This document shows positions 5,727-48,212 of a stretch of DNA of 64,000 bases, one piece after another. Position 1 is the first letter of the stretch; every line of letters begins with the position of its first letter. The position numbers were made by a program, and so were the translations under genes. The stretch is taken from the NCBI GenBank assembly GCA_018817645.1, contig JAHITK010000014.1, positions 9,989 to 73,988 on the forward strand, in the 5' to 3' direction. The stretch comes from Patescibacteria group bacterium (GTDB taxonomy: Bacteria > Patescibacteriota > Minisyncoccia > Minisyncoccales > PEYH01). The notes under the pieces were generated by a model. It made no database searches and was not told the origin of the DNA. It was given only the letters and a program-made list of their open reading frames with translations.

Positions 5727-5794
5727 TTTAAAATTCGCTTTATTCTTTTATTTTACCAGAAAATAGAAAAATCACCTATGGCGGTTTTTTAATT

Positions 5795-5813
5795 GTTAGG
5801 GTGCGACCCTAAC
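5795..5813. repeat. GC-rich palindromic element GTTAGGGTGCGACCCTAAC (copy 1 of 2)
   Basis: Perfect 8-bp stem with a 3-nt loop. An identical 19-mer occurs at 28963-28981. Confidence 0.8.
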
Positions 5814-5883
5814 GCGAGATAAAACTAATTATAAAGCGGAGAGGATAAAGTACGCTCTCCTCTCCGCTCCGCTTCTCAATTTA

Positions 5884-6414
5884 TCAACCTTGAAGGTTGA
5901 TGACGAGAATGTTCTGTGGACTGCAGTCGTTCGCCGGCCGGCGAACAACCAGGTAGGCCCTATACACACCAGGGATTTGGAAAATGCTCGTATTAACACA
6001 GACTCGCCATACGCCGTCATCTCCAAGAACGAACGGTATGTAACTGGGCTCTCCGGCCAAGATCTCAAACGTCTCGTTGGGCAAAAGCCGGCAGAAAGCG
6101 AGATATGGGGGGACATAATCCAAACCATCGTCCGCAGACACAACCTGAAATGAAAAACAGATTGTATCTCCGAACACAGGATTGGGATTATCCACCATTG
6201 GACCTTCTAAGTCCAACTTCGGCAGTAAAAACCATTCCGGTGTCTGATGGCTTGGCCTTGGCCCCGAATGATTTGGGGCCTCACCATCCCCCCCATTGCC
6301 ATTGTCGCCAGGAGGTCCCTCGGGCGGCGCCTCAAAATCCGCGAGCACTGCTCCCGCGCAGTACAGCATTGCCAACAACGCCACAACCATCGCAACCAAA
6401 ATCCGGCTTTTCAT
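5884..6414 (-). CDS. Hypothetical secreted protein (GC-rich cassette)
   Basis: Internal ATG at 6414 preceded by AAGGAGG (6418-6425). Signal-peptide-like MKSRILVAMVVALLAMLYCAGAVLA. The longer track ORF (to 6612) would overlap ychF. Confidence 0.55.
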   Translation of the reverse strand: MKSRILVAMVVALLAMLYCAGAVLADFEAPPEGPPGDNGNGGDGEAPNHSGPRPSHQTPEWFLLPKLDLEGPMVDNPNPVFGDTICFSFQVVSADDGLDYVPPYLAFCRLLPNETFEILAGEPSYIPFVLGDDGVWRVCVNTSIFQIPGVYRAYLVVRRPANDCSPQNILVINLQG

Positions 6415-6506
6415 CGTTCCCTCCTTAAATCCACAATATATCTGTATTATACCTGTAAAAATAAAAAAATCAATACCACTAATACAAAATCCATATTCTA
6501 TAAACT

Positions 6507-7583
6507 CTACCCGTCGGTTTTGATTTCTATGACATCCCCGTCCTGAACAACATATTCCTTGCCTTCGGTGCGAAGCAGACCCTTTTCTCTGGCACCGGAA
6601 AATCCCCTGCAATCAATTAGGTCTTTCCAATTTATGACTTGCGCTTTGATGAAATGAGTTTCAAAATCAGTATGGACCACCCCGCCTGCCTGGGGCGCCG
6701 TAGACCCTCTTTTTAGCGTCCATCCCCGCACCTCATTAGTTGCCACGGCAGTAAAAAAGGTTATCAAATCAAGCAGTTTATAACATTCCTTTATTAAAAC
6801 ATCTAATTGAATTTCCGCTGGCAAGTCAAGTTCAATTCTTTGTTCAGCGGTAAAATCAGCTGCCTCAAGTTCTGTCAAGACATCGGCTATCAGGAAAGGC
6901 CAATTATTCTTCTTGAATGTCTCTACCACTTCTACTGAAACCTCGCTTTCTGTGCCATTAAGCAAAAAGAGCCGCTTTTTCATAGTCAACAATTGATAAC
7001 TATTTAGAATTTTCCTTTCCTCCTCGCTCCATTGCGATTCAAACAAGAGCTCCCCTTCCCGCAGTAATTTCCACGCCTTTACAACCGCTGACATCTCTTT
7101 TTCCAGATTTTTGTCTTTCGCTTTGCCTTTCAATTCCTTTTCCAGCGACTCCGCTCTTTTTTCAATGGTCTCCAAATCCTTGAGAACCATTTCCATATCC
7201 AAAATCTCTTTTTCTTCCAAAACATCAATTTTAGACCGCGTATTAACGACATCTTCTTTGTTAAAACATCGTAAAACATAGACAATGGCATCCACTTCCC
7301 GGATATTTGCCAAAAATTTGTTTCCTAATCCCTCTCCTTGGCTTGCCCCCCTGACCAGCCCGGCAATGTCAACAAATTCCACGGTAGTATAAATTTTCTT
7401 GGCCGAAGAAGTAAGTTCGGCCAATTTGTCTATTCTCTGGTCAAGGACGGCAACCACGCCCACATTCGGGGCTATGGTGCAAAAAGGATAATTCGCGCGG
7501 TCAACCTCTTTTTTGGTTATGGCTTGGAAAAGCGTTGACTTGCCCACATTGGGCAAACCGACGATTCCTATACTCAAAGACAT
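6507..7583 (-). CDS. ychF: Ribosome-binding ATPase YchF
   Basis: P-loop [12 protein letters not shown]-terminal TGS-like domain ([23 protein letters not shown]). 358 aa. Confidence 0.9.
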
Positions 7584-8725: not shown

Positions 8726-8734
8726 GCCTTTCAA

Positions 8735-8797
8735 TTTTGGATTTTGGATTTTGGATTTTGAGTTTGATTTGACATTTGGATTTGGGATTTTGGATTT
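8735..8797. repeat. TTTTGGA-heptamer / TTTGACATTTGG repeat element (copy a)
   Basis: Reads ATTTTGGATTTTGGATTTTGGATTTTGAGTTTGATTTGACATTTGGATTTGGGATTTTGGATTT. Related copies at 48058, 56613, 58000 and 58556. Confidence 0.8.
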
Positions 8798-10775: not shown

Positions 10776-10920
10776 CTGCCGAGACCTGCCGAGATCAGAA
10801 TCCTGCCGAGATCAGAATCCTGCCGAGATCAGAATCCTGCCGAGATCATTTCTCGGCAACTTTTTCTCGGCAACTTTGCCGAGAAATGATCCAACTTTGC
10901 CGAGAAATGATCTCGGCAGG
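10776..10920. repeat. Array of GCCGAGA / TCTCGGC half-sites (set 1)
   Basis: CTGCCGAGATCAGAATC x3 in tandem, plus palindromes GCCGAGA-TCATT-TCTCGGC and GCCGAGA-AATGA-TCTCGGC. About 10 half-sites in 145 bp. Confidence 0.85.
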
Positions 10921-12857: not shown

Positions 12858-12962
12858 TGCCGAGATCGTTTCTCGGCGGTTTCTCGTCTCGGCAGTTTCT
12901 CGGCGCTTCTCGGCGCTCTATGGCTAATTGCCGGGATTGCCGAGATCGTTTCTCGGCGGTTT
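12858..12962. repeat. Array of GCCGAGA / TCTCGGC half-sites (set 2)
   Basis: TGCCGAGATCGTTTCTCGGCGGTT occurs twice (12858 and 12939), with extra TCTCGGC half-sites between. The right copy encodes the last residues (PPRNDLG) of the 12924-13709 ORF. Confidence 0.85.
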
Positions 12963-13709
12963 GCGGTTGTCAAACATAGGGAAAAAGAGATCCCTGTCTT
13001 CCTCTATTATGCGAACGCCAAAAGCGTTAACAGAAGAATCTTTTTTATCTCCCATAATCATTATTAAATCCCCTTCTTCTATCTCTTGATTTTTGGGCAG
13101 AATAGTTTGCGGAGAAACAAGAACCTCAAAAATCTCGCCCTTTTCATTGCTTATCGTAAGCCCTTGCTCGCCAACGGCAGACACCTCTCCGATATGGACA
13201 TTGGGAAGCGCTTGCAAGGCGCGTTCCCGGTAAAATGACCCGATAATAGGTATTCTGCCTTCTGCGGCCCCTCTAAACAATTGAGGATGAATGACTGTAT
13301 GCGAGACAACCAATCCGATTATGGAGACGAACAGCAAAATCCCGAGCACGGAATAAACCAAGGGCCTTCTATAAACAAAGGAAAATTTCCTGGCTAAAAT
13401 TTCCAAAATAACCACCACTGCCAATGCGAAAATTAACCAATGCCATGGGAAACGCGCGAAAAAAAGCCCCATCCCCCGCGCTCCGAATCCGGGCGCGTAC
13501 CAAAGGCCGGTGGCTCGTATCTTAAACATTACAAAACTAAAAACAAAAGCGGCAAAGGCAAAAAAGAGTATCGTCCCCAAGATGAAAAATGCGGTTTTCA
13601 AAATAAACAGCAACTTCGGCCTCATCAATAATTCTTTTCCCCTGATTCTTTTCAAAATCCGCTCTTTTATATTATTTTTCAAAGAATTGCTATTATGGTT
13701 GTTGTCCAT
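12924..13709 (-). CDS. Membrane protein, candidate anti-sigma factor
   Basis: Overlaps the upstream ECF sigma gene by 17 nt. Several TM helices then a soluble C-domain. No recognisable family motif. Confidence 0.5.
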   Translation of the reverse strand: MDNNHNSNSLKNNIKERILKRIRGKELLMRPKLLFILKTAFFILGTILFFAFAAFVFSFVMFKIRATGLWYAPGFGARGMGLFFARFPWHWLIFALAVVVILEILARKFSFVYRRPLVYSVLGILLFVSIIGLVVSHTVIHPQLFRGAAEGRIPIIGSFYRERALQALPNVHIGEVSAVGEQGLTISNEKGEIFEVLVSPQTILPKNQEIEEGDLIMIMGDKKDSSVNAFGVRIIEEDRDLFFPMFDNRKPPRNDLGNPGN

Positions 13710-16905: not shown

Positions 16906-16939
16906 TTGACCTTCCAGCGTCAAAATGCTATATTATAAT
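16906..16939 (+). promoter_or_regulatory. Sigma70-like promoter for the plus-strand mini-gene
   Basis: TTGACC (16906-16911), 17-nt spacer, TATATT, immediately followed by TATAAT (16934-16939). Confidence 0.45.
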
Positions 16940-16962
16940 CACACGGAATCTAAGGAGGCGGT

Positions 16963-17127
16963 ATGAATCTACAGAAATATGGGCCCCCTGCTCCTCGTCG
17001 CGGGAAGAACGGTCATGGGAAGAACGAGAGAAGCAATGGGCAGAGGCGTCCTCCACGCTCAAGGCGATGCTTTAGGTGCAGGAGACCAATGCCTTGGTCG
17101 TGTAACTATTGCCGACGGAGCAGATGA
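16963..17127 (+). CDS. Hypothetical 54-aa arginine-rich CxxC...CxxC (zinc-ribbon-like) protein
   Basis: Hand translation (below the track cut-off): MNLQKYGPPAPRRGKNGHGKNERSNGQRRPPRSRRCFRCRRPMPWSCNYCRRSR. TAAGGAGG lies 5-7 nt upstream of the ATG. GC-rich patch. Confidence 0.35.
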   Translation: MNLQKYGPPAPRRGKNGHGKNERSNGQRRPPRSRRCFRCRRPMPWSCNYCRRSR

Positions 17128-17291
17128 GGCCTACCGGATCCAACTATCCGCCATCCACCCAGTAGCGTTCCTCCCTTTATATTGGGGAGGAAACCAATTC
17201 CGAACGGCGAGCAATCCTGCCCGCCTTTTTCTTCTTACAATTACAAAATAAACGGAAGTCCGACTTCCGCCAACTCAACTTCTATCGCAAA

Positions 17292-17631: not shown

Positions 17632-18036
17632 TCATGGTACTATTCTCCTTGGAACTCTCCTTTTTAGCCATTGCCCCGCAAAAGCGCAGGAAGCGATAGC
17701 AAGGAAGAATGTGCCGATGGCCTCATATCGTGCTGCGTATGCCAACACGAATGTAGCCAGAAGGGAGATCGTGCTCACACCACACGCCCAAAACGAGATC
17801 AGTTTGGGTTTATTCGGCAATCTCGCAGGATTGTCGAAATCCGTGTAGTTCTTGACCAGCATTTTGAACACTTTCAACCAAAGTCCAGTCACGATCAACC
17901 CTATGAGGGTGAAAGCGAAGATAAGCAGTTTCATCGCCAATCCCCCAGGATTGATCTTCGTAAGATTCAATCCCTTGAACGGACTCTTGAGCTTAAGTTT
18001 CTTGTTCCAACGCAACACCTTTTCGTACCCGTACAC
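17632..18036 (-). CDS. Hypothetical membrane protein (GC-rich cassette)
   Basis: GTG at 18036 sits 5 nt after AAGGAGG (the track start at 18060 is TTG). 3-4 TM helices. The overlapping plus-frame ORFs are probably compositional. Confidence 0.55.
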   Translation of the reverse strand: MYGYEKVLRWNKKLKLKSPFKGLNLTKINPGGLAMKLLIFAFTLIGLIVTGLWLKVFKMLVKNYTDFDNPARLPNKPKLISFWACGVSTISLLATFVLAYAARYEAIGTFFLAIASCAFAGQWLKRRVPRRIVP

Positions 18037-18099
18037 GACGACCTCCTTATGTTTTGACAAAGTTCTGTATCTATTACTCGTTCTCGTTTAATTATGTAT

Positions 18100-18458: not shown

Positions 18459-18551
18459 TTTTCCTTAGGTGCTGGCGATAATATGCCTAATAATTTATCT
18501 TTCTCATGTAAAAGAAAAAAATAGAAGAAAAAATAGAGTTGACCCCATTTT
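18459..18551. repeat. Dispersed ~85-bp repeat (copy 1) ending in AAAAAATAGAGTTGACCCCATTTT
   Basis: Matches 22168-22247 base for base, except for a 13-nt internal duplication. Confidence 0.85.
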
Positions 18552-18605
18552 TGACATTTTTGACCCCATTTTTGATGACCATTTTTGACCCCATTTTTGA
18601 TTTTC
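18539..18605. repeat. Iteron-like array of TTGAC(CC)CATTTTT units
   Basis: Reads TTGACCCCATTT TTGACATTTT TGACCCCATTTT TGATGACCATTT TTGACCCCATTTT TGATTTTCATTTTTT. Spacing is 10-13 bp. Confidence 0.7.
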
Positions 18606-22140: not shown

Positions 22141-22247
22141 AAAAATAGATTTGACACCAATTTTTATTTTTCCTTAGGTGCTGGCGATAATATGCCTAAT
22201 AATTTATCTTTCTCATGTAAAAGAAAAAATAGAGTTGACCCCATTTT
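22141..22247. repeat. Dispersed ~85-bp repeat (copy 2) flanked by a degenerate and a perfect TAGAGTTGACCCCATTTT motif
   Basis: 22168-22247 matches 18459-18551. 22141-22165 (AAAAATAGATTTGACACCAATTTTT) is a degenerate motif copy. Confidence 0.85.
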
Positions 22248-22268
22248 CCCCATTTTCCCCTTATCTGC

Positions 22269-22295
22269 CCTCCCCCTCGCAAGGCGATGGGGAGG
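22269..22295. repeat. GC hairpin CCTCCCCCTCGC/GCGATGGGGAGG
   Basis: 12-bp stem with one mismatch. Related to the perfect hairpin at 22868-22897. Confidence 0.7.
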
Positions 22296-22729: not shown

Positions 22730-22867
22730 TTTTTTAAATTGCTTAATAGTATTTTTAGTATATTTATTATACCAAACAAGTTCTAACGTTGTATAGTATC
22801 TGAAGCTGTCTATCGAGTCTATCGAGATTGAACCTCGATAGTTCTCTTGACCTCCCCCTCCTAAAAT

Positions 22868-22897
22868 CCCTCCCCCTCGCCAAGGCGAGGGGGAGGG
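22868..22897. repeat. Perfect 14-bp GC hairpin CCCTCCCCCTCGCC-AA-GGCGAGGGGGAGGG
   Basis: Read directly from the sequence. Same orientation and sequence family as 22269-22295. Confidence 0.85.
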
Positions 22898-22988
22898 ATA
22901 AAGGGAAGGGGAGAAGAAGGAAGAAGAAGGGAGGAGGAAAAAGAAAAAGGGATTTAGGAGGGGGAGGATTTAGGTGGGGGAGAAAAAT
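22884..22988 (+). repeat. Polypurine (G/A) tract of ~100 nt
   Basis: GGCGAGGGGGAGGGATAAAGGGAAGGGGAGAAGAAGGAAGAAGAAGGGAGGAGGAAAAAGAAAAAGGGATTTAGGAGGGGGAGGATTTAGGTGGGGGAG. Only a handful of pyrimidines. Confidence 0.8.
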
Positions 22989-23090
22989 TTATTTCAGTTC
23001 GTCGCCGGGAAGTTCGGATTTGGGGAAAACCAAGCTAGGTTTTTTGAAAACCGCAAAAAGGCGAGTAGAAAAAAGAGAAAAAAATAGAGA

Positions 23091-23114
23091 AAAAAATAGA
23101 GTTGACCCCATTTT
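23091..23114. repeat. AAAAAATAGAGTTGACCCCATTTT motif (copy 3)
   Basis: The identical 24-mer occurs at 18528-18551 and 22224-22247. A 1-mismatch copy is at 63443-63466. Confidence 0.85.
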
Positions 23115-23159
23115 CCACATTTTCCATTTTCCCTGGCTGAACATCATTTACTTATTAAA

Positions 23160-34422: not shown

Positions 34423-37400
34423 TTATAATCTTACCAATTCCGATTCCTTTTTCTTTCTCATCCAATAATAACCGGTGAAAACAAGAATTCCGCTTAATAT
34501 CAGGATAAACAATATCACCAGCCAGAAGGCCAAACTGCCGATTATTTTAACAATCTGGGAAAAGATTGTTCCAGCCGCGGCCGCGCCTCCCGCGCCTTTC
34601 AAGACCTCGATGCTTACACTGTCGCTGGTGGTTTTATCCTCTCCATAAACAACCGTGCTCAAATTGCTTAAATAAGTGGTTCCGGAAGTGAATTCGCCAG
34701 CATCGCCCACTTTGGCGTCAAAGCTTATATATTTAGATTGCTTTGGAGCCAAGGTTCCCAAACCAAACCCAGCCAGAATATTGCCCACGAACGGCGTATC
34801 ATCCACTTTCAGATTTCCTAAATAATCAAGGTTTGTCGGCAAAAAATTTTCAAGCTTAACATCGGAAATGGTTTCATTGCCGGAAGAAGCCACAATAATC
34901 AAGAATGAAAGCTTGTCTCCGGGTTCTGCTGACAGGGTTTTCTTCCAACCTTCGTCAATGCCTGACTTTTTTACCAAAACAGAGACAGCCACGGTGTCAG
35001 CCATCGGAAGTTTTACATCAACCGGGCATTCGCAAAATGTCTCATTGCAATTTACTGCCCCGTCTCCGCAATGCTGACAACTTGAACAATAGTCAGTTGA
35101 GTCCTTGCTGCAAGTTGTGCCATCGCACTTTAAGTCATGATAACATCTGTCTATGTCGCATCTGTCTAAGGTGCAGGAGTTGTCGTCCTCGCAATCCATA
35201 TATTTGCTTAAGCGCGTTCCGGAAGAATTATACCAATAGACATCATTATCATAACACTGCCTTGTCTGAATTATCGGAGTCACTGAACAAGTTGAATTAT
35301 AATTACAGGTTGAGTCGCCCACCGAACAGGTTTCATTGCTTGAACAATAGTCAGCCACTATCCAGGAAGACCAATTGCCCCAGCTTCCCCAATTGCCGTC
35401 GCATTGGGCGCTCTCTCCGGAGCAATATCTAAATCTTATTCTGGTGCTCTGCCCGACATCTGCGCCGCATCCCGCTCCCCAAGGGCAGCTGTATTGGGTT
35501 TCTGATTCGCTCTTGCAAACAGCGCTTGAACTCTTATAATTTTGCCCGTCGCAACAGGGTCCGGAAGTGCATTCCTGTTCTGCCACGCACTGGCCGTTCT
35601 TGCAGGTCTCATCGCTGGCGCATTTTTTCACAAAAGATTTCTGCAGAGATGAATTGCTGAAGCAGGAACTGCCGGAACATCCTTTGTCATAGCAAGTCCT
35701 CTCTTTATAGACGCTGTCTCCGGAGCAATAATAAGAGCTCCAGGAGGTACAAGAGTCGTCTCCGCAATCCTCATATCTGTCTTGCCTGCTGTTATTGGAA
35801 TCATACCAATAAACATCGTTGTTGTAACAGGATTTGTGGTCGTTTTGATTGTAACAAGAGTAGCAGTTGTTGCAATTATTGCAGGTATCACAGATATTGC
35901 ATCCGCAACTGGAATCATAATTGCAAGTATATTCAGCGACGCCCCCGGTGCAATACCAACTTGGCTTTTGGTTGCTGTTACAGCTTCCATAACCGCAATA
36001 AGTCGGTCCCAAAATGCTCTCAACCGGAGACCATTCCAAGCAGGAATCGGAATCATAATTTCCGCAGGTCTGCTTATGGGCGCTGTCATAACATCTTACC
36101 TGTCCGGAAAAAGCGCATTCGCTTTGGCAGGCCTGTCCGCAATCTTGCGAACAATTGTATTGATTTTCTCCGCATTCAGAATTGCAGATTCCATTTCCAC
36201 AGGAATAACACTGCGAGGAACAGGTAGAATCGCTGTATGTGCAGGTTCCGCCCGAACAATAATAGTCCCGGCGAGTACTGCCGATGCAAGTGTCAGTCCC
36301 GCAGCTTTCCGGACTTGACCATTCTAAACAGGAATCCGAGTCGTAATTTCCGCAAATTTTCTTTGAACCGCTGTCATGACAGGTTGTCTGGCCAGTTACA
36401 GCGCATTCATCCTGGCAAGTGGGTGGATTACAGCTTGAATCGCTTACGCATTTTGATTCAAATTGAGTATCGCAACTATTGGGACTGCAAGTTCTTGTCC
36501 GGGTTTGATACATTTGGCCTGAACCGCATCCATCTTGAGCGCATCCCTGATTGCTCCAAGAACTCCAATCATTGCATTGGCAAGTAGTCACGCACTGGCC
36601 ATTGCTGCAGATTTTCCCGATTGCCGAACAATCCTGATAATTTTCCCATTGATTTTGAGCAAAACAAACAGCGCCTGAACATCCTCTAACAATCTTTTTT
36701 CTTTGAACCATATTGCCAGAGCATTGATAATCGTCTGTCCAGAAATCACTGCCGCATTCGTCATATTTATCTTCTCTGGCGCTGCAGGAATCATACCAGT
36801 AAACATCATTGTCATAGCAGGACTTGTAATTGTGGGTGGTGCAAGTAGTCACGCATTGTCCATTGCTACAGACCTTGCCATCGTCAGCGCAATTATATTC
36901 ATTCACCCACTCGTTATAGTTATAGCAAGAAGAACCGGAACATCCTTTCTTGTTCTTTTCTCTTTGAACCCAGTCCCCGGAACATTGGTAATTAGTAGTC
37001 CAGGAATCGCTCCCGCAGTTCTGGCTGGTTTGCCACACTGCATTGGAAAAACAAGAAGCATTGGAGCATCCTTTATCTAACCATTTTCTTTGTAAAGTGT
37101 TTCCTGAACATTGATAATCGCTGGTCCAGCCGCTGGTTCCGCATTCGCTGGATTTATCCTCTCTCGCCTGACAGGAGTTGTACCAGTAAACATCATTGTC
37201 ATAGCAGGACTTGTAATTGTGGGTGGTGCAAGTAGTCACGCATTGTCCATTGCTGCAGGTTTTTCCACTGGTTGAACAATTCTGATAATTTTCCCATTGA
37301 TTGTAATTATAGCAAGAAGAACCGGAACATCCTTTCTTGTTCTTTTCTCTTTGGATCCAATCCCCGGAACATCTGTAATTGTCGGTCCAGGAGTCGGAAC

Positions 37401-37953
37401 CGCAATCCCCGTAATCTTTCCAAATTGTATTGCTGAAACAGGAACTCCCAGAGCATCCTTTATCCAGCCACTTCCTTTGCAAATGGCTCCCGGAACATTG
37501 ATAATCGTTGGCCCAACCGGTAGAGCCGCAGTCCTGATATATCCCTTCTCTGGCGCCGCAGGAATTATACCAATAGACATCATTATTATAGCAGGCCCGA
37601 TGATCTTGAGGGGTGCAAGAATTCACGCACATCCCATTCTGGCAGACAGTGCCGGAAAGACAACTCATAGAAGAGGACCATTCTAAACAGACATCGCAGT
37701 CATAGTTTCCGCAGGCCTTGTAATGAGTGGAATCGGTGCAAGCTCTTTGGTCATAATATGAGCATTCGTCGGAGCAACTTGTGCCGCATCCCCATTGCCC
37801 ATAAACCACATAACTCTTAGAAAAATTAGAGTCATCTCCATTAGAATCAAAATGCGCCTTTATTAAAGGTTGGATTAAAAATGCGAGAGCAAAAAGAGTG
37901 ATAACAATAAAAAATACTCTTAATTTCTTCATATTTTTTGTGCCGTATGGCAC
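34423..37953 (-). CDS. Giant cysteine-rich repeat surface protein with C-terminal membrane anchor
   Basis: 1176 aa. Signal peptide, 3 tandem 129-aa Cys-rich modules (387-bp DNA period, e.g. 36811 vs 37198), WSxWS/CGxG...RTRTC thrombospondin-type-1-like motif, Ig-like C-domain, terminal TM + RKKK. Confidence 0.8.
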   Translation of the reverse strand: MPYGTKNMKKLRVFFIVITLFALAFLIQPLIKAHFDSNGDDSNFSKSYVVYGQWGCGTSCSDECSYYDQRACTDSTHYKACGNYDCDVCLEWSSSMSCLSGTVCQNGMCVNSCTPQDHRACYNNDVYWYNSCGAREGIYQDCGSTGWANDYQCSGSHLQRKWLDKGCSGSSCFSNTIWKDYGDCGSDSWTDNYRCSGDWIQREKNKKGCSGSSCYNYNQWENYQNCSTSGKTCSNGQCVTTCTTHNYKSCYDNDVYWYNSCQAREDKSSECGTSGWTSDYQCSGNTLQRKWLDKGCSNASCFSNAVWQTSQNCGSDSWTTNYQCSGDWVQREKNKKGCSGSSCYNYNEWVNEYNCADDGKVCSNGQCVTTCTTHNYKSCYDNDVYWYDSCSAREDKYDECGSDFWTDDYQCSGNMVQRKKIVRGCSGAVCFAQNQWENYQDCSAIGKICSNGQCVTTCQCNDWSSWSNQGCAQDGCGSGQMYQTRTRTCSPNSCDTQFESKCVSDSSCNPPTCQDECAVTGQTTCHDSGSKKICGNYDSDSCLEWSSPESCGTDTCIGSTRRDYYCSGGTCTYSDSTCSSQCYSCGNGICNSECGENQYNCSQDCGQACQSECAFSGQVRCYDSAHKQTCGNYDSDSCLEWSPVESILGPTYCGYGSCNSNQKPSWYCTGGVAEYTCNYDSSCGCNICDTCNNCNNCYSCYNQNDHKSCYNNDVYWYDSNNSRQDRYEDCGDDSCTSWSSYYCSGDSVYKERTCYDKGCSGSSCFSNSSLQKSFVKKCASDETCKNGQCVAEQECTSGPCCDGQNYKSSSAVCKSESETQYSCPWGAGCGADVGQSTRIRFRYCSGESAQCDGNWGSWGNWSSWIVADYCSSNETCSVGDSTCNYNSTCSVTPIIQTRQCYDNDVYWYNSSGTRLSKYMDCEDDNSCTLDRCDIDRCYHDLKCDGTTCSKDSTDYCSSCQHCGDGAVNCNETFCECPVDVKLPMADTVAVSVLVKKSGIDEGWKKTLSAEPGDKLSFLIIVASSGNETISDVKLENFLPTNLDYLGNLKVDDTPFVGNILAGFGLGTLAPKQSKYISFDAKVGDAGEFTSGTTYLSNLSTVVYGEDKTTSDSVSIEVLKGAGGAAAAGTIFSQIVKIIGSLAFWLVILFILILSGILVFTGYYWMRKKKESELVRL

Positions 37954-39393: not shown

Positions 39394-41934
39394 TCACTCC
39401 GCCTTTCTGATATTAAACCTCTTCGGTTCTACCTCAATCCTGTCCCCTCTTTTTATTTCGTCTTTTAAAAGCGCTTCGGCCAAAACATTTTCCACTTTGT
39501 CCTGAATTACCCTTTTTAAATTTCTCGCCCCAAAAGTAATGTCATAACCAAGTTCCACAATTTTCTCCTTGAGCTCTTGGGTGATTACAAAATCAATGTT
39601 CTTTTCTATCAATCCTTCCTGAATCTTTTTAAACATCAATTGGGCTATATCTAAAAGATTCTCCTTGCTCAACGGCTTAAACAGAACCACTGCGTCAAAC
39701 CTGTTTATAAACTCGGGGCGGAAAATCCTTTGGTCAAAAAGCTTGTCTAATAATTTCCCCTTAACAATGGCAAAATCCAAATTGTTTTTTAAAGCGTCTA
39801 AAATAACTTCATAGCCAGCGTTGGAAGTGGCGATGATAATGGCATTCTTGAAATCTACTTTTCTCCCCAGGCCATCGGTAATGTGGCCATCATCCAAAAC
39901 CTGCAAAAACAAATTTAAAATATTGGGATGGGCTTTTTCTATTTCATCCAAAAGAATCAAGGAAAACGGATTTTCCCGCACCGGCGTGGTAAGAAGCCCT
40001 TCGTTTCCGGAAGAACCCATAAGCCGAGGAATATCATCCTGGGACTGAAACTCTGACATATCAAGCCGAATCATTTTTTCTTCCGAGCCGAAATAGATTT
40101 CGGCCAGCGCTTTTGAGGTTTCGGTTTTGCCGACACCAGTCGGACCTAAAAAGAGAAAACCGCCCATCGGACCCTTCCTTTCTTTAAGTTTGGCTCGGGC
40201 TCGGCGCAAGGCAGTGGAAACCTCCCTGACCGCCTCTTGCTGGTTAATAATCCTTTGGTGAATAAGCTCTTCCAGATTAAGCAAGACCTCCTTTTCTTTC
40301 ATCTCTATTTTCCCCACCGGAATTTCTGTTTTCCGAGCCACTATCTTATCAATGTCTTCCGGCAAAATCCATCTTCCTTTCTCGGTTGTCGTTTTTACCA
40401 TTGCTTCTTCCAAAACCTCAATGGCTTTCTTGGGGAACGGCACATCCGCGATGTATCTGCCGGTCAATTCCACAATCTGTTCCAAGGCCGGATAGGTTAT
40501 AAATTTATGAAATTTGGCTTCCAGGGCAGGAGCTAATCTCTGCAGTATTCTCATTGTTTCCCCGGGCGAGGGCTCCTGGATTTCCACCTTGGAAAAAAGA
40601 TTTAAAATCGTCGGGTTTTCCTCAATCTGCTTATGAAGACCGGCATAACTGGCAAGGGCGATAATTTTGAATTCCGGGAATTTCAAATACGAGGAAATCA
40701 GGCCGGAGATATCTATTTTGCCCGGCGCCGGCTCTCGGCCCACAAAATTATGGAATTCATCAATGATTAAAATTACATTTCTCGCATTGATTACCTCTTT
40801 AAAAATCTTATCTAAAACATCTTCCACTTGGTCCAAATTCTGCATCTGGGCAAGTAATTGAGGAATTTTCAATTCCAAGACCCTATTATAATTCACGGCT
40901 GGAAAACTTTGCCCTTTGTTGCTTTTGATGGCAATGGCTTTGACCACATTTTCCATTCCCACTCCCGGCTCCCCGACTAAAAGAACATTATTCATTTCCG
41001 GACTGGATAAGGTCCTTTCCACCTGCTCAATTTCTTTTTCGTAACCAATGACTATTTCCATCCCTTCATTCAACACCGATTGATTATAATCCATGGCGTA
41101 TTCGTCCAGCGTAATTGTATAACCGCTTGACCAACTCCTAGCGATACTGCCCTTCCGGGCTAAATTATCGTAATCCCAAAACCTCTTGCGCCGCTTCCTT
41201 TTATCCTCTTCTTCCTCCCACCACAAAACCGCATTCCTGACATCATTGGGCCGCAAGTCCGCTTCCAGTAAAAACAAGCCCAATATCGGCTCATTTTTCG
41301 CCAGGGCTAAAAACATATCTCCCGTCTCAATATATTTATGCTTTTTGCTTTGGGCGATTTCAAAGGCATCTTTAACCGCTTGTTCAAATTTCTGGGAATA
41401 AATGCCCTGGCTTAAAGTATCCTGACTTTTCGGCCCTGAAAAACATTCTGCCAGCTTATGACCCAGCGCCTCAATGTCTATCAATAAGCGCGAGAGGATA
41501 AAATTGAGCTTAGAATTCTCTCTTAGAAGAAAATAAAGGAAGAGGCTGGCATTAATGGGAAAAATATTTTTTCTCTTTGAAAATCTGATGGCGCAATCAA
41601 GGCCCCTGGCGGTGTCAATGCTTAAAAATTCCGCCAGATTGACCACTGGCGTTACGGCCGGGGTCTCCGGATTGCTAACCTTTGTTTTTATAAAACCGCT
41701 TATCAGAAAACAAACAGTTCCGAAACTGAAAAACACTAAAGCAAAACCGAGAAGAAAATCGTATTCATTGCCGAATCCGGCTCCGACATTGACAAAGATA
41801 AAGATAAAAACGGAACCGGCCGAGACAACAAAGAAAATTGCCTTAAGCCCGAAAATTATTGAGGCAACAAGGCCCTCGGCAATCCGCATTGCCCTGAAAA
41901 CCGCTGTTTTTTGGAAATCAAAATTAAACATCAA
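39394..41934 (-). CDS. Clp/Hsp100-family AAA+ ATPase with N-terminal transmembrane region
   Basis: 846 aa. NBD2 Walker A GPTGVGKTE. NBD1 Walker A degenerate (GEPGVGMEN, no Lys) but Walker B is intact (LIIDEFH). 3-4 hydrophobic helices at the N-terminus. Confidence 0.8.
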   Translation of the reverse strand: MMFNFDFQKTAVFRAMRIAEGLVASIIFGLKAIFFVVSAGSVFIFIFVNVGAGFGNEYDFLLGFALVFFSFGTVCFLISGFIKTKVSNPETPAVTPVVNLAEFLSIDTARGLDCAIRFSKRKNIFPINASLFLYFLLRENSKLNFILSRLLIDIEALGHKLAECFSGPKSQDTLSQGIYSQKFEQAVKDAFEIAQSKKHKYIETGDMFLALAKNEPILGLFLLEADLRPNDVRNAVLWWEEEEDKRKRRKRFWDYDNLARKGSIARSWSSGYTITLDEYAMDYNQSVLNEGMEIVIGYEKEIEQVERTLSSPEMNNVLLVGEPGVGMENVVKAIAIKSNKGQSFPAVNYNRVLELKIPQLLAQMQNLDQVEDVLDKIFKEVINARNVILIIDEFHNFVGREPAPGKIDISGLISSYLKFPEFKIIALASYAGLHKQIEENPTILNLFSKVEIQEPSPGETMRILQRLAPALEAKFHKFITYPALEQIVELTGRYIADVPFPKKAIEVLEEAMVKTTTEKGRWILPEDIDKIVARKTEIPVGKIEMKEKEVLLNLEELIHQRIINQQEAVREVSTALRRARAKLKERKGPMGGFLFLGPTGVGKTETSKALAEIYFGSEEKMIRLDMSEFQSQDDIPRLMGSSGNEGLLTTPVRENPFSLILLDEIEKAHPNILNLFLQVLDDGHITDGLGRKVDFKNAIIIATSNAGYEVILDALKNNLDFAIVKGKLLDKLFDQRIFRPEFINRFDAVVLFKPLSKENLLDIAQLMFKKIQEGLIEKNIDFVITQELKEKIVELGYDITFGARNLKRVIQDKVENVLAEALLKDEIKRGDRIEVEPKRFNIRKAE

Positions 41935-42314
41935 AATAAAAGTTTAATGCCATAAGCGAAACCCGCGACGATGATGGCCGGCAATAGAATCCAACCGAGA
42001 AAAACGATTGCCCCTAAAAAGAAAATGATGGCTTCAAAAATGACGCCGAAAACAATCAGCACGCTCCTTATTATCGCGCCCAAGAGTCGGGCGAAAGTGT
42101 TTGAGATAAATGTCTCCGCATATCTGGAAACGCTGAATCCCCGGCCATAAGACCATTGATAGCCGTGCCAGGGGGCGAAAAGAGTCCTGATGAGGGCAAC
42201 CACGGAGAAGAAACTTAAATAAAAGCGGAGATAATTTTTCCACGCCTTGCCGAGCTCTTTCGGCACATCATAAAAATGCCAAACTAAATATTGAGCAATG
42301 ATGTTTTGGCCCAT
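41931..42314 (-). CDS. Hypothetical membrane protein
   Basis: 127 aa with multiple TM segments. 4-nt overlap with the Clp-like gene. Confidence 0.55.
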   Translation of the reverse strand: MGQNIIAQYLVWHFYDVPKELGKAWKNYLRFYLSFFSVVALIRTLFAPWHGYQWSYGRGFSVSRYAETFISNTFARLLGAIIRSVLIVFGVIFEAIIFFLGAIVFLGWILLPAIIVAGFAYGIKLLF

Positions 42315-44002: not shown

Positions 44003-44428
44003 TTACTTGAGTTCTACAGTCGCTCCGGCTGTTTCAAATTTCTTTTTAATGTCTTCGGCCTCTTCTTTCTTCGCTTTTTCCTTAATGACCTGCGGTTCAG
44101 CGGCGGCGGCATCTACCAAATCCTTTGCTTCTTTCAATCCTTTAGCCGTGGCGTCTCTGACTGCTTTGATGACATCAATTTTCTTATCCCCCACTGTTTT
44201 AAGAATCACATCATACTCTGATTTCTCTTCCTCGGCTCCGGCTCCGGGAACCGCTCCGGCTGCCGGAACTGCGGCAACCGCCACTGGCGCGGCTGCGCTT
44301 ACGCCGAATTTTCTTTCAAGAACCTTGACCAATTCCGCCAAATCAACCACTTTCATATCCTCAATCTCTTTGACAATTTTGGCGAATTTTTCCGGCACTT
44401 TCACTTTCTCTTCCTTTTTTTCCGGCAT
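44003..44428 (-). CDS. rplL: 50S ribosomal protein L7/L12
   Basis: C-terminal domain [33 protein letters not shown]...[18 protein letters not shown]. Ala-rich hinge. ATG at 44428 preferred over 44506. Confidence 0.9.
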
Positions 44429-44579
44429 GGTTGTTGCCTGAGAAACATCACCGACATTATCGCTTACAGACGAACTAGAAATTTTTTCTGTAGATCTTTC
44501 TACCATATTTTTATAAATTAATTATTTAATTATTGATTACTAATTAATGGCCATTAATAATTGACTATTTTGAAAACTG

Positions 44580-45110
44580 TTATTGCTTTTCAGCAATCGC
44601 CCCGAAGGCGTACATCAGACCTTTTATAATTTGCCGCTGAACAGCCACAAATCCTGAAATCGGCGCAGAAAGCGTCCCTGCCAATTTGGCGAAAAGTTCT
44701 TGCTTGGACGGCAATTGAGCTAACGTGATAACCTCCTCTGCGTTCATAAACTCACAATTATTTCCGTCAGAGATGTATCCGCCAATAAGTTTTAAATTAT
44801 TTTGCTCTTGCGAAAACTGATAGGCGGTTTTTACCGGCGCTAACTCATCCTCAAAGCCGAAAATCAAAGCAATCTCGCTGCTTAATTTTTCTTTTGGGAA
44901 ATCCAATTTTTTTTCTTTAAAAGCTATCTGAGCCAATGTCTTTTTTACAACCACGAATTTGGCTCCTGCTTCCTTCAATTTTTTTCTAAGATTGACCAAA
45001 TCGTGGAATTTCAGGCCGGAAAAATTAACAAAAACTATGGCTCTTTGTTTTTCAAGCTTTTCTTTTATCCCTTCCACTATTTTCTTCTTTTGCTCTTTTG
45101 TTAACGGCAT
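44580..45110 (-). CDS. rplJ: 50S ribosomal protein L10
   Basis: MPLTKEQKKKIVEGIKEKL...VFVNFSGLKFHDLVNLRKKLKEAGAKFVVVKKTL. ATG at 45110 preferred. Confidence 0.9.
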   Translation of the reverse strand: MPLTKEQKKKIVEGIKEKLEKQRAIVFVNFSGLKFHDLVNLRKKLKEAGAKFVVVKKTLAQIAFKEKKLDFPKEKLSSEIALIFGFEDELAPVKTAYQFSQEQNNLKLIGGYISDGNNCEFMNAEEVITLAQLPSKQELFAKLAGTLSAPISGFVAVQRQIIKGLMYAFGAIAEKQ

Positions 45111-45360
45111 ATCTTTTATATCTTTAAAAAAATAAATGGTCTCCGGAATGACCGCAGACAAACAATCAATGATAAATTATCATTAATATTACCTCGGCGG
45201 GACTTATGTTTGCCCGCTGTCTACGGTTTGTCCTCTCAAGTTTTGCGAAGCAAAATTTGAGGGGATTTCTATTATGTTTCCAGTATATCTATTTTAAAAA
45301 TCCTGTCAAGCTTTTGGCTATTTTGTCCTTGATCCCCCTGTGGATAACTTTCCTCCAAAA

Positions 45361-45381
45361 ATTACGAGGCCCGGCCTCGTA
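45361..45381. repeat. Palindromic element ATTACGAGGCC-C-GGCCTCGTA
   Basis: Same family as 25954-25980. Confidence 0.8.
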
Positions 45382-45424
45382 GTGAGAATCCGTTGATTTA
45401 ACGCGGTTTGCGCGTTTTGGGAAA

Positions 45425-45447
45425 ATTACGAGGCCGGGCCTCGTAAT
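45425..45447. repeat. Palindromic element ATTACGAGGCC-G-GGCCTCGTAAT overlapping the 3' end of the DJ-1 gene
   Basis: Same family. It encodes the C-terminal LRGPAS and the stop of 45426-45971. Confidence 0.8.
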
Positions 45448-45971
45448 TGTCCTCGCAATTTTTGGAGGATGGTCTGGGCAAACTCATCGGCTGCGGATGG
45501 GCCGTTGGCTGTTATAATGTTTCCGTCGCAAACCACGGGTTTGTCCAGATATTCTGCTCCCCCTTCTTCCAAAACCCTGATTGGCTTCTTGTCCATTACG
45601 CTTGACCAGATGGTCGCCTTTTTCCCTTTTAAAATCCCGGCTTTTGCCAAAATTGCCGGCGCAATGCAAATGGCTGCCAATAATTTCCCTTGCTGATTTG
45701 CCTCTTTAGCAATTTCCCAAACCTCCTCGTCGTCAATGTATTTATAAGCACCGGGGCCGCCAGCAAAAACCACCGCGTCAAGCTGTGATATATCAATCTC
45801 GTCAAATGTTTTGTCCACCTGTGCCTCTCCCCCGCTTCCGCCAATGGCAATACCCTTTTGCGAACTGACGGTAATAACTTCAAAACCAGCGCCAAGAAAA
45901 ATGTTTCTCGGAATAAAATACTCCTCATCCCGAAAATTCCTAAAAGAAATTATAATGGCTATTTTTGCCAT
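45426..45971 (-). CDS. DJ-1/PfpI family protein
   Basis: Nucleophile elbow AAICIAPAIL and a conserved VVFAGGPG segment. 181 aa. Confidence 0.85.
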   Translation of the reverse strand: MAKIAIIISFRNFRDEEYFIPRNIFLGAGFEVITVSSQKGIAIGGSGGEAQVDKTFDEIDISQLDAVVFAGGPGAYKYIDDEEVWEIAKEANQQGKLLAAICIAPAILAKAGILKGKKATIWSSVMDKKPIRVLEEGGAEYLDKPVVCDGNIITANGPSAADEFAQTILQKLRGQLRGPAS

Positions 45972-47076: not shown

Positions 47077-47142
47077 TGCCTCAAGGTAAAAGTATTGTAA
47101 AAATTATTCAGTTGTAGTAAGTTATAGAAAAGGAGGTGCACG

Positions 47143-47331
47143 ATGCGATTTCCCCAAAGTTTTTCTAATCTTCTAATGTTTGTGGGTTTCCTCTGTGCTG
47201 CCTGCATGATAATAGTGGGTGTGACGTCACTCCATTCTGGCGGCTCAGACGATTTCGTGTGCGGGCTCGGGTTAGCAGCCATCTGCCTAATCTTATTCGG
47301 GCAACCTTCAATGAGAAAACCCGATCCATAG
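47143..47331 (+). CDS. Hypothetical 62-aa membrane protein (GC-rich cassette)
   Basis: AAAGGAGG lies 6 nt upstream of the ATG. Two TM segments. Own terminator at 47346-47375. Confidence 0.5.
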   Translation: MRFPQSFSNLLMFVGFLCAACMIIVGVTSLHSGGSDDFVCGLGLAAICLILFGQPSMRKPDP

Positions 47332-47345
47332 TACAAACCTCGACA

Positions 47346-47375
47346 TAGCAGGAACGACCTTATGCGTTCCTGCTA
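47346..47375 (+). terminator. Intrinsic terminator after the 47143 mini-gene
   Basis: TAGCAGGAACG-ACCTTATG-CGTTCCTGCTA followed by TTCTTTTT. Confidence 0.7.
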
Positions 47376-48053
47376 TTCTTTTTCTACTAAGGGGACAAAG
47401 ACAAATCCTGGATATTCTTCTTTTTCAAAAGACCCATCCGCTTTTTTAGTAAAAGCGCAAATGGAGTTATTTATCGGCATCACTATTTTACCGCCGATTT
47501 TAACCTGTTTTTCCCAAGCGGAGGGCATACTGTCCGCCGAAGCCGAACAAAGAATCCTGTCAAACGGAGCTTCCTGCGGATAGCCCTTTCTTCCGTCTCC
47601 TAAGATAAATTCTAACCTGCCTTGCTTAATAAATCCATACTTCCCGGCATTTCTTTTTCCGAGTTCTTTTAATTCAGGGACAATCTCAATAGCAATCACC
47701 TTGCCATTAATTTGAGATTTGGAATTTTGGATTTGTTTGGGATTTGGGAATTGGGAATTGAGAATTCCCTTCTGGCTTACTATGTAAGCCAGAAGGGCGC
47801 TTGTCCAGCCGGAACCAGAGCCGACATCAAGAATTTTGTTCCCGGCTTTGGGCCCTAATTTCTCCAGCATAAAAGCCACTACTAATGGCTGGGAAATCGT
47901 CTGCCCATAGCCGATTGGAAACGCCTCATCCACCTCCGCCATCTCTTTATAGCCATCGCCTAAAAAATCCTCGCGTTTAACCGTTTGAAACGCTTTGATA
48001 ATTTCCGGGGTCTTTAGCCAACCCTGTTTAATTAAATCATCTGTTAAAGACAT
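47373..48053 (-). CDS. pcm: Protein-L-isoaspartate O-methyltransferase
   Basis: GQTISQPLVVAFMLEKL, VLDVGSGSGWTSALLA. Carries a repeat-encoded insertion ILNSQFPNPKQIQNSKSQIN. Confidence 0.85.
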   Translation of the reverse strand: MSLTDDLIKQGWLKTPEIIKAFQTVKREDFLGDGYKEMAEVDEAFPIGYGQTISQPLVVAFMLEKLGPKAGNKILDVGSGSGWTSALLAYIVSQKGILNSQFPNPKQIQNSKSQINGKVIAIEIVPELKELGKRNAGKYGFIKQGRLEFILGDGRKGYPQEAPFDRILCSASADSMPSAWEKQVKIGGKIVMPINNSICAFTKKADGSFEKEEYPGFVFVPLVEKE

Positions 48054-48057
48054 GTCT

Positions 48058-48212
48058 TAAATCTCAATGTCAAAATCCCAATGTCAAATCAAATCCAAAT
48101 GACTCAATGTCAAAAGAATACATTTTTTCAATTTGGATTTTGGATTTTGAGCTTGATTTGACATTTGAGCTTTGGGTTTTGGGTTTTGGGTTTTGGATTT
48201 TGGATTTTGAAT
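48058..48212. repeat. TTTTGGA-heptamer / TTTGACATTTG repeat element (copy b, inverted pair)
   Basis: Reverse-type arm (AATGTCAAAATCCCAATGTCAAATCAAATCCAAATGAC), a spacer, then the forward arm (TTTGGATTTTGGATTTTGAGCTTGATTTGACATTTGAGCTTTGGGTTTTGGG...). Confidence 0.85.

Follow-up and report, generated by a model that had tools for sequence, protein, structure and literature searches.

A probable accessory cassette led by a Shine-Dalgarno sequence behind ychF in a Parcubacteria genome whose core genes mostly start without one

Phage morons, in the concept of Juhala and Hendrix, are autonomous promoter-gene-terminator units of atypical composition that are inserted between other genes. Atypical and horizontally transferred genes, genomic islets, and the amelioration of such genes form the concept of Lawrence and Ochman. 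Here we describe a stretch of 64,000 nucleotides (the “window”) from contig JAHITK010000014.1 of a Patescibacteria group bacterium and, within it, the gene C2, which lies between ychF and a zapG-like gene behind a canonical Shine-Dalgarno (SD) sequence, together with the other units of the window that start in the same way. By its ychF, which groups with Paceibacterota/Parcubacteria/Minisyncoccales species representatives, the genome is a Paceibacterota (Parcubacteria) metagenome-assembled genome (MAG). Atypical genes are more often lower in guanine-plus-cytosine (GC) content (PMC6028130). SD-poor genomes are known from the Bacteroides/Flavobacterium “group B,” where B. ovatus has a standard anti-SD, an SD on ~3% of its genes, and an A-rich non-SD motif (PMC6028130), and about half of the Parcubacteria 16S genes are without the CCUCCU motif (Tsurumaki et al. 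2022, PMC9297842). Atypical or moron-like cassettes and SD-poor genomes are thus already known kinds; new is that SD use in Parcubacteria is tied to GC excess and to accessory status, a link of which we found no description in the searchable literature.

We consider it probable that the focal locus is a ~0.7-kb self-contained accessory cassette behind ychF, and that it and its counterparts belong to units drawn from a GC-richer, SD-using gene pool. Such cassettes would make up ~10% of the genes in the clade, with a GC content 8–10 points higher, third codon positions included. They would carry a canonical extended SD (AAGGAGG[TG]) 5–9 nt from the start and be transcriptionally autonomous, with a sigma-70-type promoter and a hairpin terminator, while core genes would start without an SD from A/U-rich, weakly structured leaders or possibly from leaderless mRNAs. 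Whole cassettes would be gained, lost, or swapped between related genomes, and the SD would be under selection, the GC-richer, structured 5′ ends being unable to use the SD-independent route.

The clearest separation came from the SD itself. The 68 window genes of a curated list were scored by the energy of the duplex that their positions −20 to −4 form with ACCUCCUUA; the curated list was used because C3 and C5 escape a simple gene caller, which also sets one start wrongly. The energies are bimodal: 53 genes lie above −5 kcal/mol, five are moderate, and exactly six are at or below −11 kcal/mol. These six, at −12.0 to −12.9 kcal/mol (best core gene, −10.2), are the very sites at which an earlier note, made from the sequence alone, had described a recurring GC-rich, SD-led architecture, so the recurrence was recovered by a ranking on SD energy alone. 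The same note had named ychF, xth, mutM, cysS, rplU, ftsI, and mraZ as genes with no SD; they range from −3.1 to +1.9 kcal/mol, and the SD is essentially absent from the core. The six units also depart from the genomic background in composition, with a GC of 0.505 (range 0.476–0.552) against 0.406 in the other 62 genes and a GC at third codon positions (GC3) of 0.541 (range 0.49–0.59) against 0.427. The GC excess of strong-SD genes has a Mann–Whitney p of 6e-8 in the window and of 1.4e-9 when pooled over four genomes. The word AAGGAGG is not over-represented in the window as such (14 copies found, 11.8 expected); seven of the copies are intergenic and stand 5–8 nt before a start codon, these being the SDs of Table 1, and the remaining seven are inside genes. 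High GC does not always come with an SD, as the 718-aa gene at 58648–60804, which has an N-terminal hydrophobic segment, is as GC-rich as the cassettes (0.485) yet is without one; its homolog in the related locus L010 is likewise GC-rich without an SD. A moderate SD upstream of macB, a core gene, is not conserved in three orthologs and was therefore taken as chance.

For other loci we used a motif-centred census of SD-led starts of open reading frames (ORFs) with a reversed-motif control. The counts were 7 vs 2 in the control for the window (64 kb), 9 vs 0 for the closest relatives (ychF at least 69% identical; 100 kb), and 4 vs 0 for L003 (20.6 kb), the locus that carries the ortholog of C2. 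Across 51 loci selected by ychF, the SD-led ORFs were GC-richer (dGC +0.040 vs +0.010, p=0.002).

The starts of cassettes and core genes differ in their surroundings as well. The DNA upstream of core genes is 25% GC, with a frequency of A of 0.49–0.54 at positions −2 to −5, and the initiation regions of the cassettes fold at −9.4 kcal/mol vs −5.5 kcal/mol in the core (p=0.001). This greater structure at their 5′ ends, compared with the A/U-rich leaders of the core, would be why the cassettes need an SD. The SD was kept in every orthologous cassette examined: in two of two genomes each for C2 and C3, in three lineages for C6, and in three genomes each for the glycosyltransferase of C1 and the deacetylase that goes with it. 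Many of the cassettes have an extended SD (GGAGGTGA) that matches the tail of a canonical 16S. The proposal that these genes are differently translated thus holds at the level of the nucleotide sequence, where SDs and structured starts stand against the A/U-rich, SD-free leaders of the core. In the core itself, −10-like hexamers (TAAAAT/TATAAT) end 6–7 nt before the ATG at 6507–7583, 12924–13709, 41931–42314, and 45426–45971, and the upstream sequence suggests that part of the core genome may have leaderless mRNAs.

In the focal cassette, everything from the promoter-like site to the hairpins is fitted between the ychF stop codon (6507) and the promoter of the zapG-like gene (Table 1). The ORF, the GC-richer patch, and the overlapping ORFs in other frames that had been pointed out are all there. 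C2 has a GC of 0.531 and a GC3 of 0.559, the 500-bp stretch 6001–6500 has a GC of 0.492 against a mean of 0.414 over the window, and six ORFs of 62–107 aa overlap C2 in other frames, which is expected because stop codons are rare in GC-rich DNA. Likewise, AAGGAGG does stand 5 nt ahead of the ATG, with a duplex energy of −12.6 kcal/mol, and the promoter-like site implies a 5′ untranslated region (UTR) of ~25 nt. RNA folding gives two hairpins in the 116-nt 3′ region (−40.4 kcal/mol, z = −4.4). The palindrome that the earlier note had placed behind the gene exists, but it stands ~70 nt beyond the stop codon without a U-run and is probably not the terminator. The other hairpin is much stronger, has a weak U-tract, and is the likely terminator of C2.

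C2 is a protein-coding gene under purifying selection. Only two homolog clusters exist for it among 5.8 billion proteins, in which its one other relative is P0002, 72% identical over the C-terminal domain. Its gene is found in L003 in the same order (ychF, gene, zapG-like, xth), in a genome of 36.7% GC whose core proteins are 66–90% identical to those of the window. The L003 ortholog keeps the promoter stretch TTGATTTTTTT..GGTATAATA (with TATAAT) and the SD as AAGGAGGGA (with AAGGAGG), and has a textbook GC hairpin with a T-run at the terminator position. Over the domain, the proportions of nonsynonymous and synonymous differences are 0.19 (pN) and 0.74 (pS), with a dN/dS of ~0.06, from which its coding nature and purifying selection follow. 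The NCBI annotation lists C2 as a hypothetical protein and places its start 15 codons late.

The protein has three regions: a putative signal peptide (residues 1–25, coded at 6340–6414), a variable, low-complexity, acidic linker rich in Pro, Gly, Asp, and Asn (residues ~26–58), and an all-beta domain of ~115 aa with four cysteines (residues ~59–176). In the signal-peptide-like start that had been noticed, MKSR is followed by ~20 hydrophobic residues and then VLA before the putative cleavage point and D. In the L003 ortholog the corresponding parts are MWKK, a stretch of hydrophobic residues, and VFG before D, and DFEAPPE after the putative cleavage point is common to both. In the full-length AlphaFold2 model (predicted local distance difference test score, pLDDT, 56), residues 2–23 form a helix; the domain modelled from the two-sequence alignment reached a pLDDT of 64. 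Over both models, the helix is followed by a disordered stretch and 7–8 strands. A Foldseek search against the PDB gave generic immunoglobulin (Ig)-like and nanobody matches, none at E ≤ 1e-3. We claim no specific fold family for C2, as models of modest confidence match only generic Ig-like sandwiches. No match to Pfam was found for C2. Its product is predicted to be a small exported protein with a cleavable signal peptide and a disulfide-capable beta-sandwich domain, most likely one that evolves fast and acts at the surface of an episymbiont or in contact with its host.

It could be argued that the units are no genes at all, being structured RNAs, repeats, or assembly chimeras in which ORFs and SDs arise by chance. 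GC-rich DNA in an AT-rich genome does yield long spurious ORFs in several frames, C3 is missed by gene finders and is less conserved over its coding sequence (CDS) than over its 3′ UTR, and C7 has no stop codon before its terminator. These points are outweighed by the substitution pattern of C2, the in-frame indels and conserved cysteine pairs of C3, the Pfam matches of the glycosyltransferase down to 7e-30, the protein homologs of C4 and C6, and the excess of SD-led starts over the control in the window and its close relatives. The assemblies speak against chimeras too: separate assemblies agree to 100% over the C2 cassette, borders included, and four sequencing runs gave one and the same L003 ortholog, which makes chimeric assembly unlikely and leaves no sign of the border misassembly against which the earlier note had asked for a check. 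An explanation by noncoding RNA was dropped, because Rfam matches in the window at gathering thresholds are limited to tRNAs and the L10 leader, and the cassettes are without a match even at E < 0.5. Taken together, a nongenic origin of the units is highly improbable, and for C1, C2, C4, and C6 it is largely refuted.

The remaining units vary around the same plan (Table 1). Promoter-like sites were found by a consensus scan in five of the six, with 12/12 consensus positions in C4, 11/12 in C6, 10/12 in C3 as in C2, 9/12 in C5, and none in C1. A textbook terminator was returned by the scan in C5 only (a 12-bp stem and a T-run), the hairpins of the other units being missed by the scan rules; in C3, C4, and C6/C7, hairpins with T-runs were seen by eye. 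The promoters claimed in the earlier note are thus largely there as candidate sites and the terminators less uniformly so; the activity of both is predicted from their sequence.

Table 1. Features of the focal cassette C2 and of the other SD-led units, in window coordinates (aa, amino acids; UTR, untranslated region)
Unit	Position	Strand	Description
C1	3–671	−	SD 665–671 and 5′ part of PgaC-like family-2 glycosyltransferase (GT2), cut by the window start
C2, present/absent segment	~5785–6500	−	Spans promoter, SD, ORF, and terminator, between ychF stop and zapG-like promoter
C2, promoter-like site	6446–6473	−	TTGATT, 16 nt, TATAAT; 10/12 consensus positions
C2, SD	6420–6426	−	AAGGAGG, then GAACG, then ATG; 5-nt spacing
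C2, ORF	5884–6414	−	Focal gene, 176 aa; translation begins MKSRILVAMVVALLAMLYCAGAVLA, then DFEAPPEG
C2, hairpin	5833–5870	−	Likely terminator; starts 14 nt past the stop codon; followed by UUUAUAAUUAGUUUUAU (U-rich)
C2, palindrome	5795–5813	−	GUUAGGGU CGC ACCCUAAC; 8-bp stem without U-run; right end of inserted segment
C3	16906–17250	+	Promoter TTGACC-17-TATATT 16906–16934; SD 16952–16958; ORF 16963–17127; 3′ UTR with terminator
C4	17632–18129	−	Promoter TTGACA-18-TATAAT with TG extension 18129–18100; SD 18042–18048; GTG-start ORF 17632–18036
C5	47070–47376	+	Weak promoter-like site; SD 47130–47136; ORF 47143–47331; terminator 47345–47376
C6/C7	61655–62380	+	Promoter TTGACA-18-TATTAT 61655–61684; SD 61706–61712; 175-aa ORF 61721–62248
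C7 (part of C6/C7)		+	Second SD 62252–62258; short ORF from 62264; hairpin and T-run ~62330–62378

C1 is no mini-cassette as had been proposed for 1–659. It is SD-led and GC-rich, but on the full contig the GT2 is followed by a second SD-led, GC-rich gene, a polysaccharide deacetylase, so the site holds the 5′ part of a two-gene operon (L001 15756–17671). Apart from marginal PHROGs matches of C4 and C5, GT2 is alone among the units in having matches in Pfam and PHROGs; its named matches are a mix of Parcubacteria, Bacillota, Bipolaricaulota, and others at 41–54% identity.

C3 is predicted to encode a basic protein of 54 aa with a CxxC...CxxC zinc ribbon. Its L003 ortholog keeps the promoter, AAGGAGGCG, the cysteine pairs, and the frame across two in-frame indels, with a dN/dS of 0.37. 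The 3′ UTR of ~120 nt (17128–17250; L003 6960–7065, minus strand) is ~80% identical between the two and contains a CCUCCC...GGGAGG hairpin in addition to the terminator. This UTR could act as a cis-regulatory element or give rise to a small RNA.

The ORF of C4 encodes a membrane protein of 134 aa with only nine remote relatives among 1.84 billion representative proteins. That of C5 would encode 62 aa with two hydrophobic segments and runs antisense to the genes around it; C5 is alone in its 90%-identity cluster, no search for distant homologs having been run for it.

The site at 61721–62248 is again an SD-led, GC-rich unit, in which the ORF of C6 is followed by a second SD-led short ORF. The unit is divergent from a nucleotidyltransferase/NTase_sub_bind pair (60816–61594), and C6 homologs at 47–52% identity always adjoin such a pair in divergent orientation. 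The 5′ UTR motif CCTTTACAA(A)GGAGGTG is kept in three lineages at ~50% protein identity. C6, C7, and the MNT/HEPN-like pair (60816–62380; L010–L013) may form one functional or mobile module. C7 (62264–62467), whose coding status is questionable, has a perfect SD, but its frame stays open as far as the terminator hairpin in the window as well as in L010; the L012 copy has a stop inside the terminator stem.

A comparison of relatives shows that whole units come and go. In L014 and L015, whose ychF is 84% and 81% identical to that of the window, the gap between ychF and the zapG-like gene is only 140 and 125 nt, the whole ~715-bp C2 unit is absent, and flank homology resumes at ~5782 of the window. 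Pairwise identities of ychF and xth give the order ((L003,L014),window),L015, with L014 the sister of L003, and since C2 is in the window and L003 only, at least two events are required. The two C2 alleles differ in GC3 (0.559 in the window, 0.363 in L003), and their pS is above that of the flanking genes. The GT2 and deacetylase pair is absent from L003 and occurs intact, in unrelated contexts, in L007 (34% GC) and L009 (38% GC), where it is SD-led each time and 7–9 GC points above the background. In L010 the nucleotidyltransferase/NTase_sub_bind pair, of the toxin-antitoxin kind, is 91% identical in DNA to that of the window and the adjoining C6 is unalignable, at 48% protein identity, which suggests that C6 has been replaced there or is hyperdivergent between conserved flanks.

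How the units move was approached through their borders. Between the units of the window, the borders share no k-mers except the SD and no repeats, which rules out mobility of the integron or miniature inverted-repeat transposable element (MITE) type. There is no integrase among the called neighbours of the units, and none of the six tRNA genes of the window adjoins a cassette. With no mobility genes or border repeats, recombination in the conserved flanks is the most economical route, and we infer that the cassettes are exchanged in this way. One could instead see them as moron-like cargo of Patescibacteria phages or mobile elements, left behind or carried on integrated elements. Their own promoters and likely terminators, atypical composition, and intergenic insertion are the architecture of phage morons, their neighbours include Fic/HTH, AbiEii, and nucleotidyltransferase/HEPN-type pairs typical of variable regions, and GT2 has weak PHROGs matches to GtrB-like moron genes. 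This reading would, however, have to accommodate flanks of housekeeping genes with no integrase, att-like repeats, or phage structural genes near the units, no close relatives of C2, C4, and C6 in 2.9 million viral contigs, no PHROGs matches for C2, C3, C6, and C7, and only marginal ones for C4 and C5 (E 0.003–0.05). We regard a phage cargo as very unlikely.

The reading of the cassettes as units of a GC-richer, SD-using pool has to face a number of points that weigh against it. No donor outside Patescibacteria was found, the homologs of C2, C4, and C6 being few and on Patescibacteria-like or unnamed contigs, and the integrases, tRNA-adjacent sites, and border repeats that mobile DNA might bring are all absent near the units. 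The GC excess of orthologous cassettes tracks the GC of the host at a roughly constant offset, and a foreign GC3 signal, if neutral, would be expected to have faded at divergences that saturate synonymous sites, unless transfer is recurrent. Each cassette was compared in no more than two to four genomes, with some loci chosen via cassette homologs, and the gene starts in the census are our own calls. Some Parcubacteria are without an anti-SD (PMC9297842) and none of the 16S of this genome was recovered, its anti-SD being presumed here. Of the earlier claim of horizontal acquisition, what stands is the gene flux between relatives (C2, the GT2 and deacetylase pair, and C6); an outside donor does not. 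“Foreign” here means belonging to the flexible gene pool. The direction of the events is inferred, and for individual units a loss instead of a gain may apply.

The constant offset leaves room for a native, selectively maintained class: vertically inherited genes for exported, membrane, or niche proteins in which selection keeps the SD and the GC and GC3 content, possibly because expression has to be high or conditional or the mRNA stable, and in which patchiness reflects loss only. The offset is +7 to +10 points in genomes of 34, 38, and 41% GC, SDs are conserved in orthologs at ~50–60% protein identity, all homologs are Patescibacteria-like, and C2 and C3 are common to two species. Such a class sits poorly with rplU, rplJ, rplL, and rpsP, which have neither an SD nor a raised GC3, and with the C2 allele of L003, which is at background GC3, so that GC3 has not been held up there. 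It also sits poorly with the flux: the presence of C2 is not monophyletic, C6 is unalignable between 91%-identical flanks, and the GT2 and deacetylase pair is in unrelated contexts in three genomes. A native class is therefore in our judgement unlikely, if still to be taken seriously.

Whether the ribosomes of this clade can read an SD bears directly on the argument. There is no rRNA in the window, and none in 780 kb of relatives' loci except for the distant L059, whose ychF is 58% identical. The 16S end linked there has an intact helix 45, then GGATCA and TTTTTTTT, with no CCTCC. In L059 (560–730), and in 43 loci among L065–L144 from a metagenome scan that otherwise returned eukaryotic 18S, the Parcubacteria 16S ends GGAUCA-UUUUUUU-AAAA instead of GGAUCACCUCCUUA, with helix 45 intact and the U-run conserved, and many of these loci have the order 16S-greA-tRNA-(variable)-ychF. 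These U-tail lineages are all distant from the window (ychF 51–59% identical), and in the flanks of 16S genes without an anti-SD the SD-led ORF starts number 2 vs 4 in the control (156 kb). The excess of SD-led ORFs in the clade of the window therefore argues indirectly for a working anti-SD there, and suggests that SD-led cassettes mark incoming DNA and accumulate only in clades able to use them. An exception among the anti-SD-less lineages, and a further case of gene flux, is an inserted three-gene SD-led block in L059 (2052–3254) with sigma-70-like promoters and terminators, which is absent from L090, L144, and L072 and whose SD cannot pair canonically with the L059 ribosome.

On the other hand, two initiation regimes could share one reduced genome and set its core apart from its flexible genes, with ribosomes whose anti-SD, like that of the GGAUCA-U7 Parcubacteria, is missing, or else is masked. 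The SD cassettes would then be a standing signature of poorly translated incoming DNA or, alternatively, a regulon of exported, membrane, and host-interaction proteins for special conditions or for a specialised initiation route, and the pairing of SD with anti-SD would have been replaced by that of a conserved, U-rich 16S tail with the A-rich leaders of the core. We consider this reading improbable. The 16S of this MAG would decide: an end of GGAUCAUUUUUUU without CCUCC would remove the SD:anti-SD mechanism and support a lost anti-SD, and an end of GGAUCACCUCCUU would support SD-dependent translation of the cassettes. At 44003–45971 of the window, the L10 leader, rplJ, and rplL are present and rplK and rplA are not upstream; in their place is a 181-aa ORF whose start is DJ-1/PfpI-like by eye. 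The locus could fit the uL1-lacking Parcubacteria group linked to anti-SD loss in PMC9297842.

The window contains further repeats outside the cassettes. An ABC-transporter gene is preceded by a 17-nt tandem repeat, CCTGCCGAGATCAGAAT (10785–10848; 3.8 copies), which has two copies more in the window than in the otherwise identical ENA contig L001. Arrays of AT-rich short repeats lie just upstream of genes at 57442–57590, 8734–8797, 48132–48209, and 56613–56726 (rnc, a 224-aa gene, rpsP, and nusB), including TTAATTGT in 18.5 copies and ATTTTGG, TTTGGAT, and AAATCCAAATGTCA motifs. Perfect GC-rich palindromes (CCCTCCCCCTCGCCAAGGCGAGGGGGAGGG) with nearby repeats of the TAGAGTTGACCCCATTTTCC type are found at 22232–22295, 22850–22980, 23069–23130, and 18539–18601; similar palindromic repeats stand upstream of the C6 homolog in L012, and Rfam gave only generic hairpin (miRNA) models for them. 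Finally, a 387-nt tandem duplication (36771–37595; 2.1 copies, 78% identical) is inside the 1176-aa ORF at 34423–37953.

A large part of bacterial diversity belongs to the Patescibacteria, which have reduced ribosomes, are for the most part uncultured, and have barely been studied as to how translation starts. In the window, accessory, GC-richer, autonomous genes can be told from the core by SD strength alone, which thus offers a cheap marker of the flexible pool, which in episymbionts is likely to include surface and host-contact proteins. Gene finders with a single start model miss or mis-start such genes, as the uncalled C3 and the late NCBI start of C2 illustrate. A prediction is that SD-led genes can be acquired by clades with a retained anti-SD but not by U-tail clades.

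In comparison with known systems, the cassettes are like integron gene cassettes in being small, mostly one-gene units, often of unknown function, and variable between relatives; unlike them, they have their own promoters, no attC-like or shared repeat, and no integrase in sight, and are scattered over 62 kb. With atypical genes and genomic islets they share a deviant GC and GC3, a patchy occurrence among relatives, and a position near toxin-antitoxin and defence-type genes, but their GC deviates upward, the offset recurs in orthologs across hosts, and there is neither a donor nor mobility machinery. The likeness to phage morons lies in one- or two-gene units with a sigma-70-type promoter, a likely terminator, and a deviant composition, which are intergenic, leave the flanking genes undisturbed, and are present or absent between close relatives. 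Unlike morons, the cassettes have no viral relatives, stand between chromosomal housekeeping genes (ychF, zapG-like, xth, NUDIX), and differ from their surroundings in the translation-initiation signal as well. The anti-SD-less Parcubacteria (PMC9297842) belong to the same phylum-level group and have a core nearly without SDs in common with this genome, but they are distant from the window and show no excess of SD-led ORFs apart from the L059 block. In its pattern of initiation the genome resembles the SD-poor “group B” (PMC6028130), where most genes likewise have an A-rich, SD-free upstream region (A at −2 to −5) and a small minority has a canonical SD. What sets the present genome apart from it is the phylum, Paceibacterota, and that the SD-led minority is the GC-rich accessory fraction.

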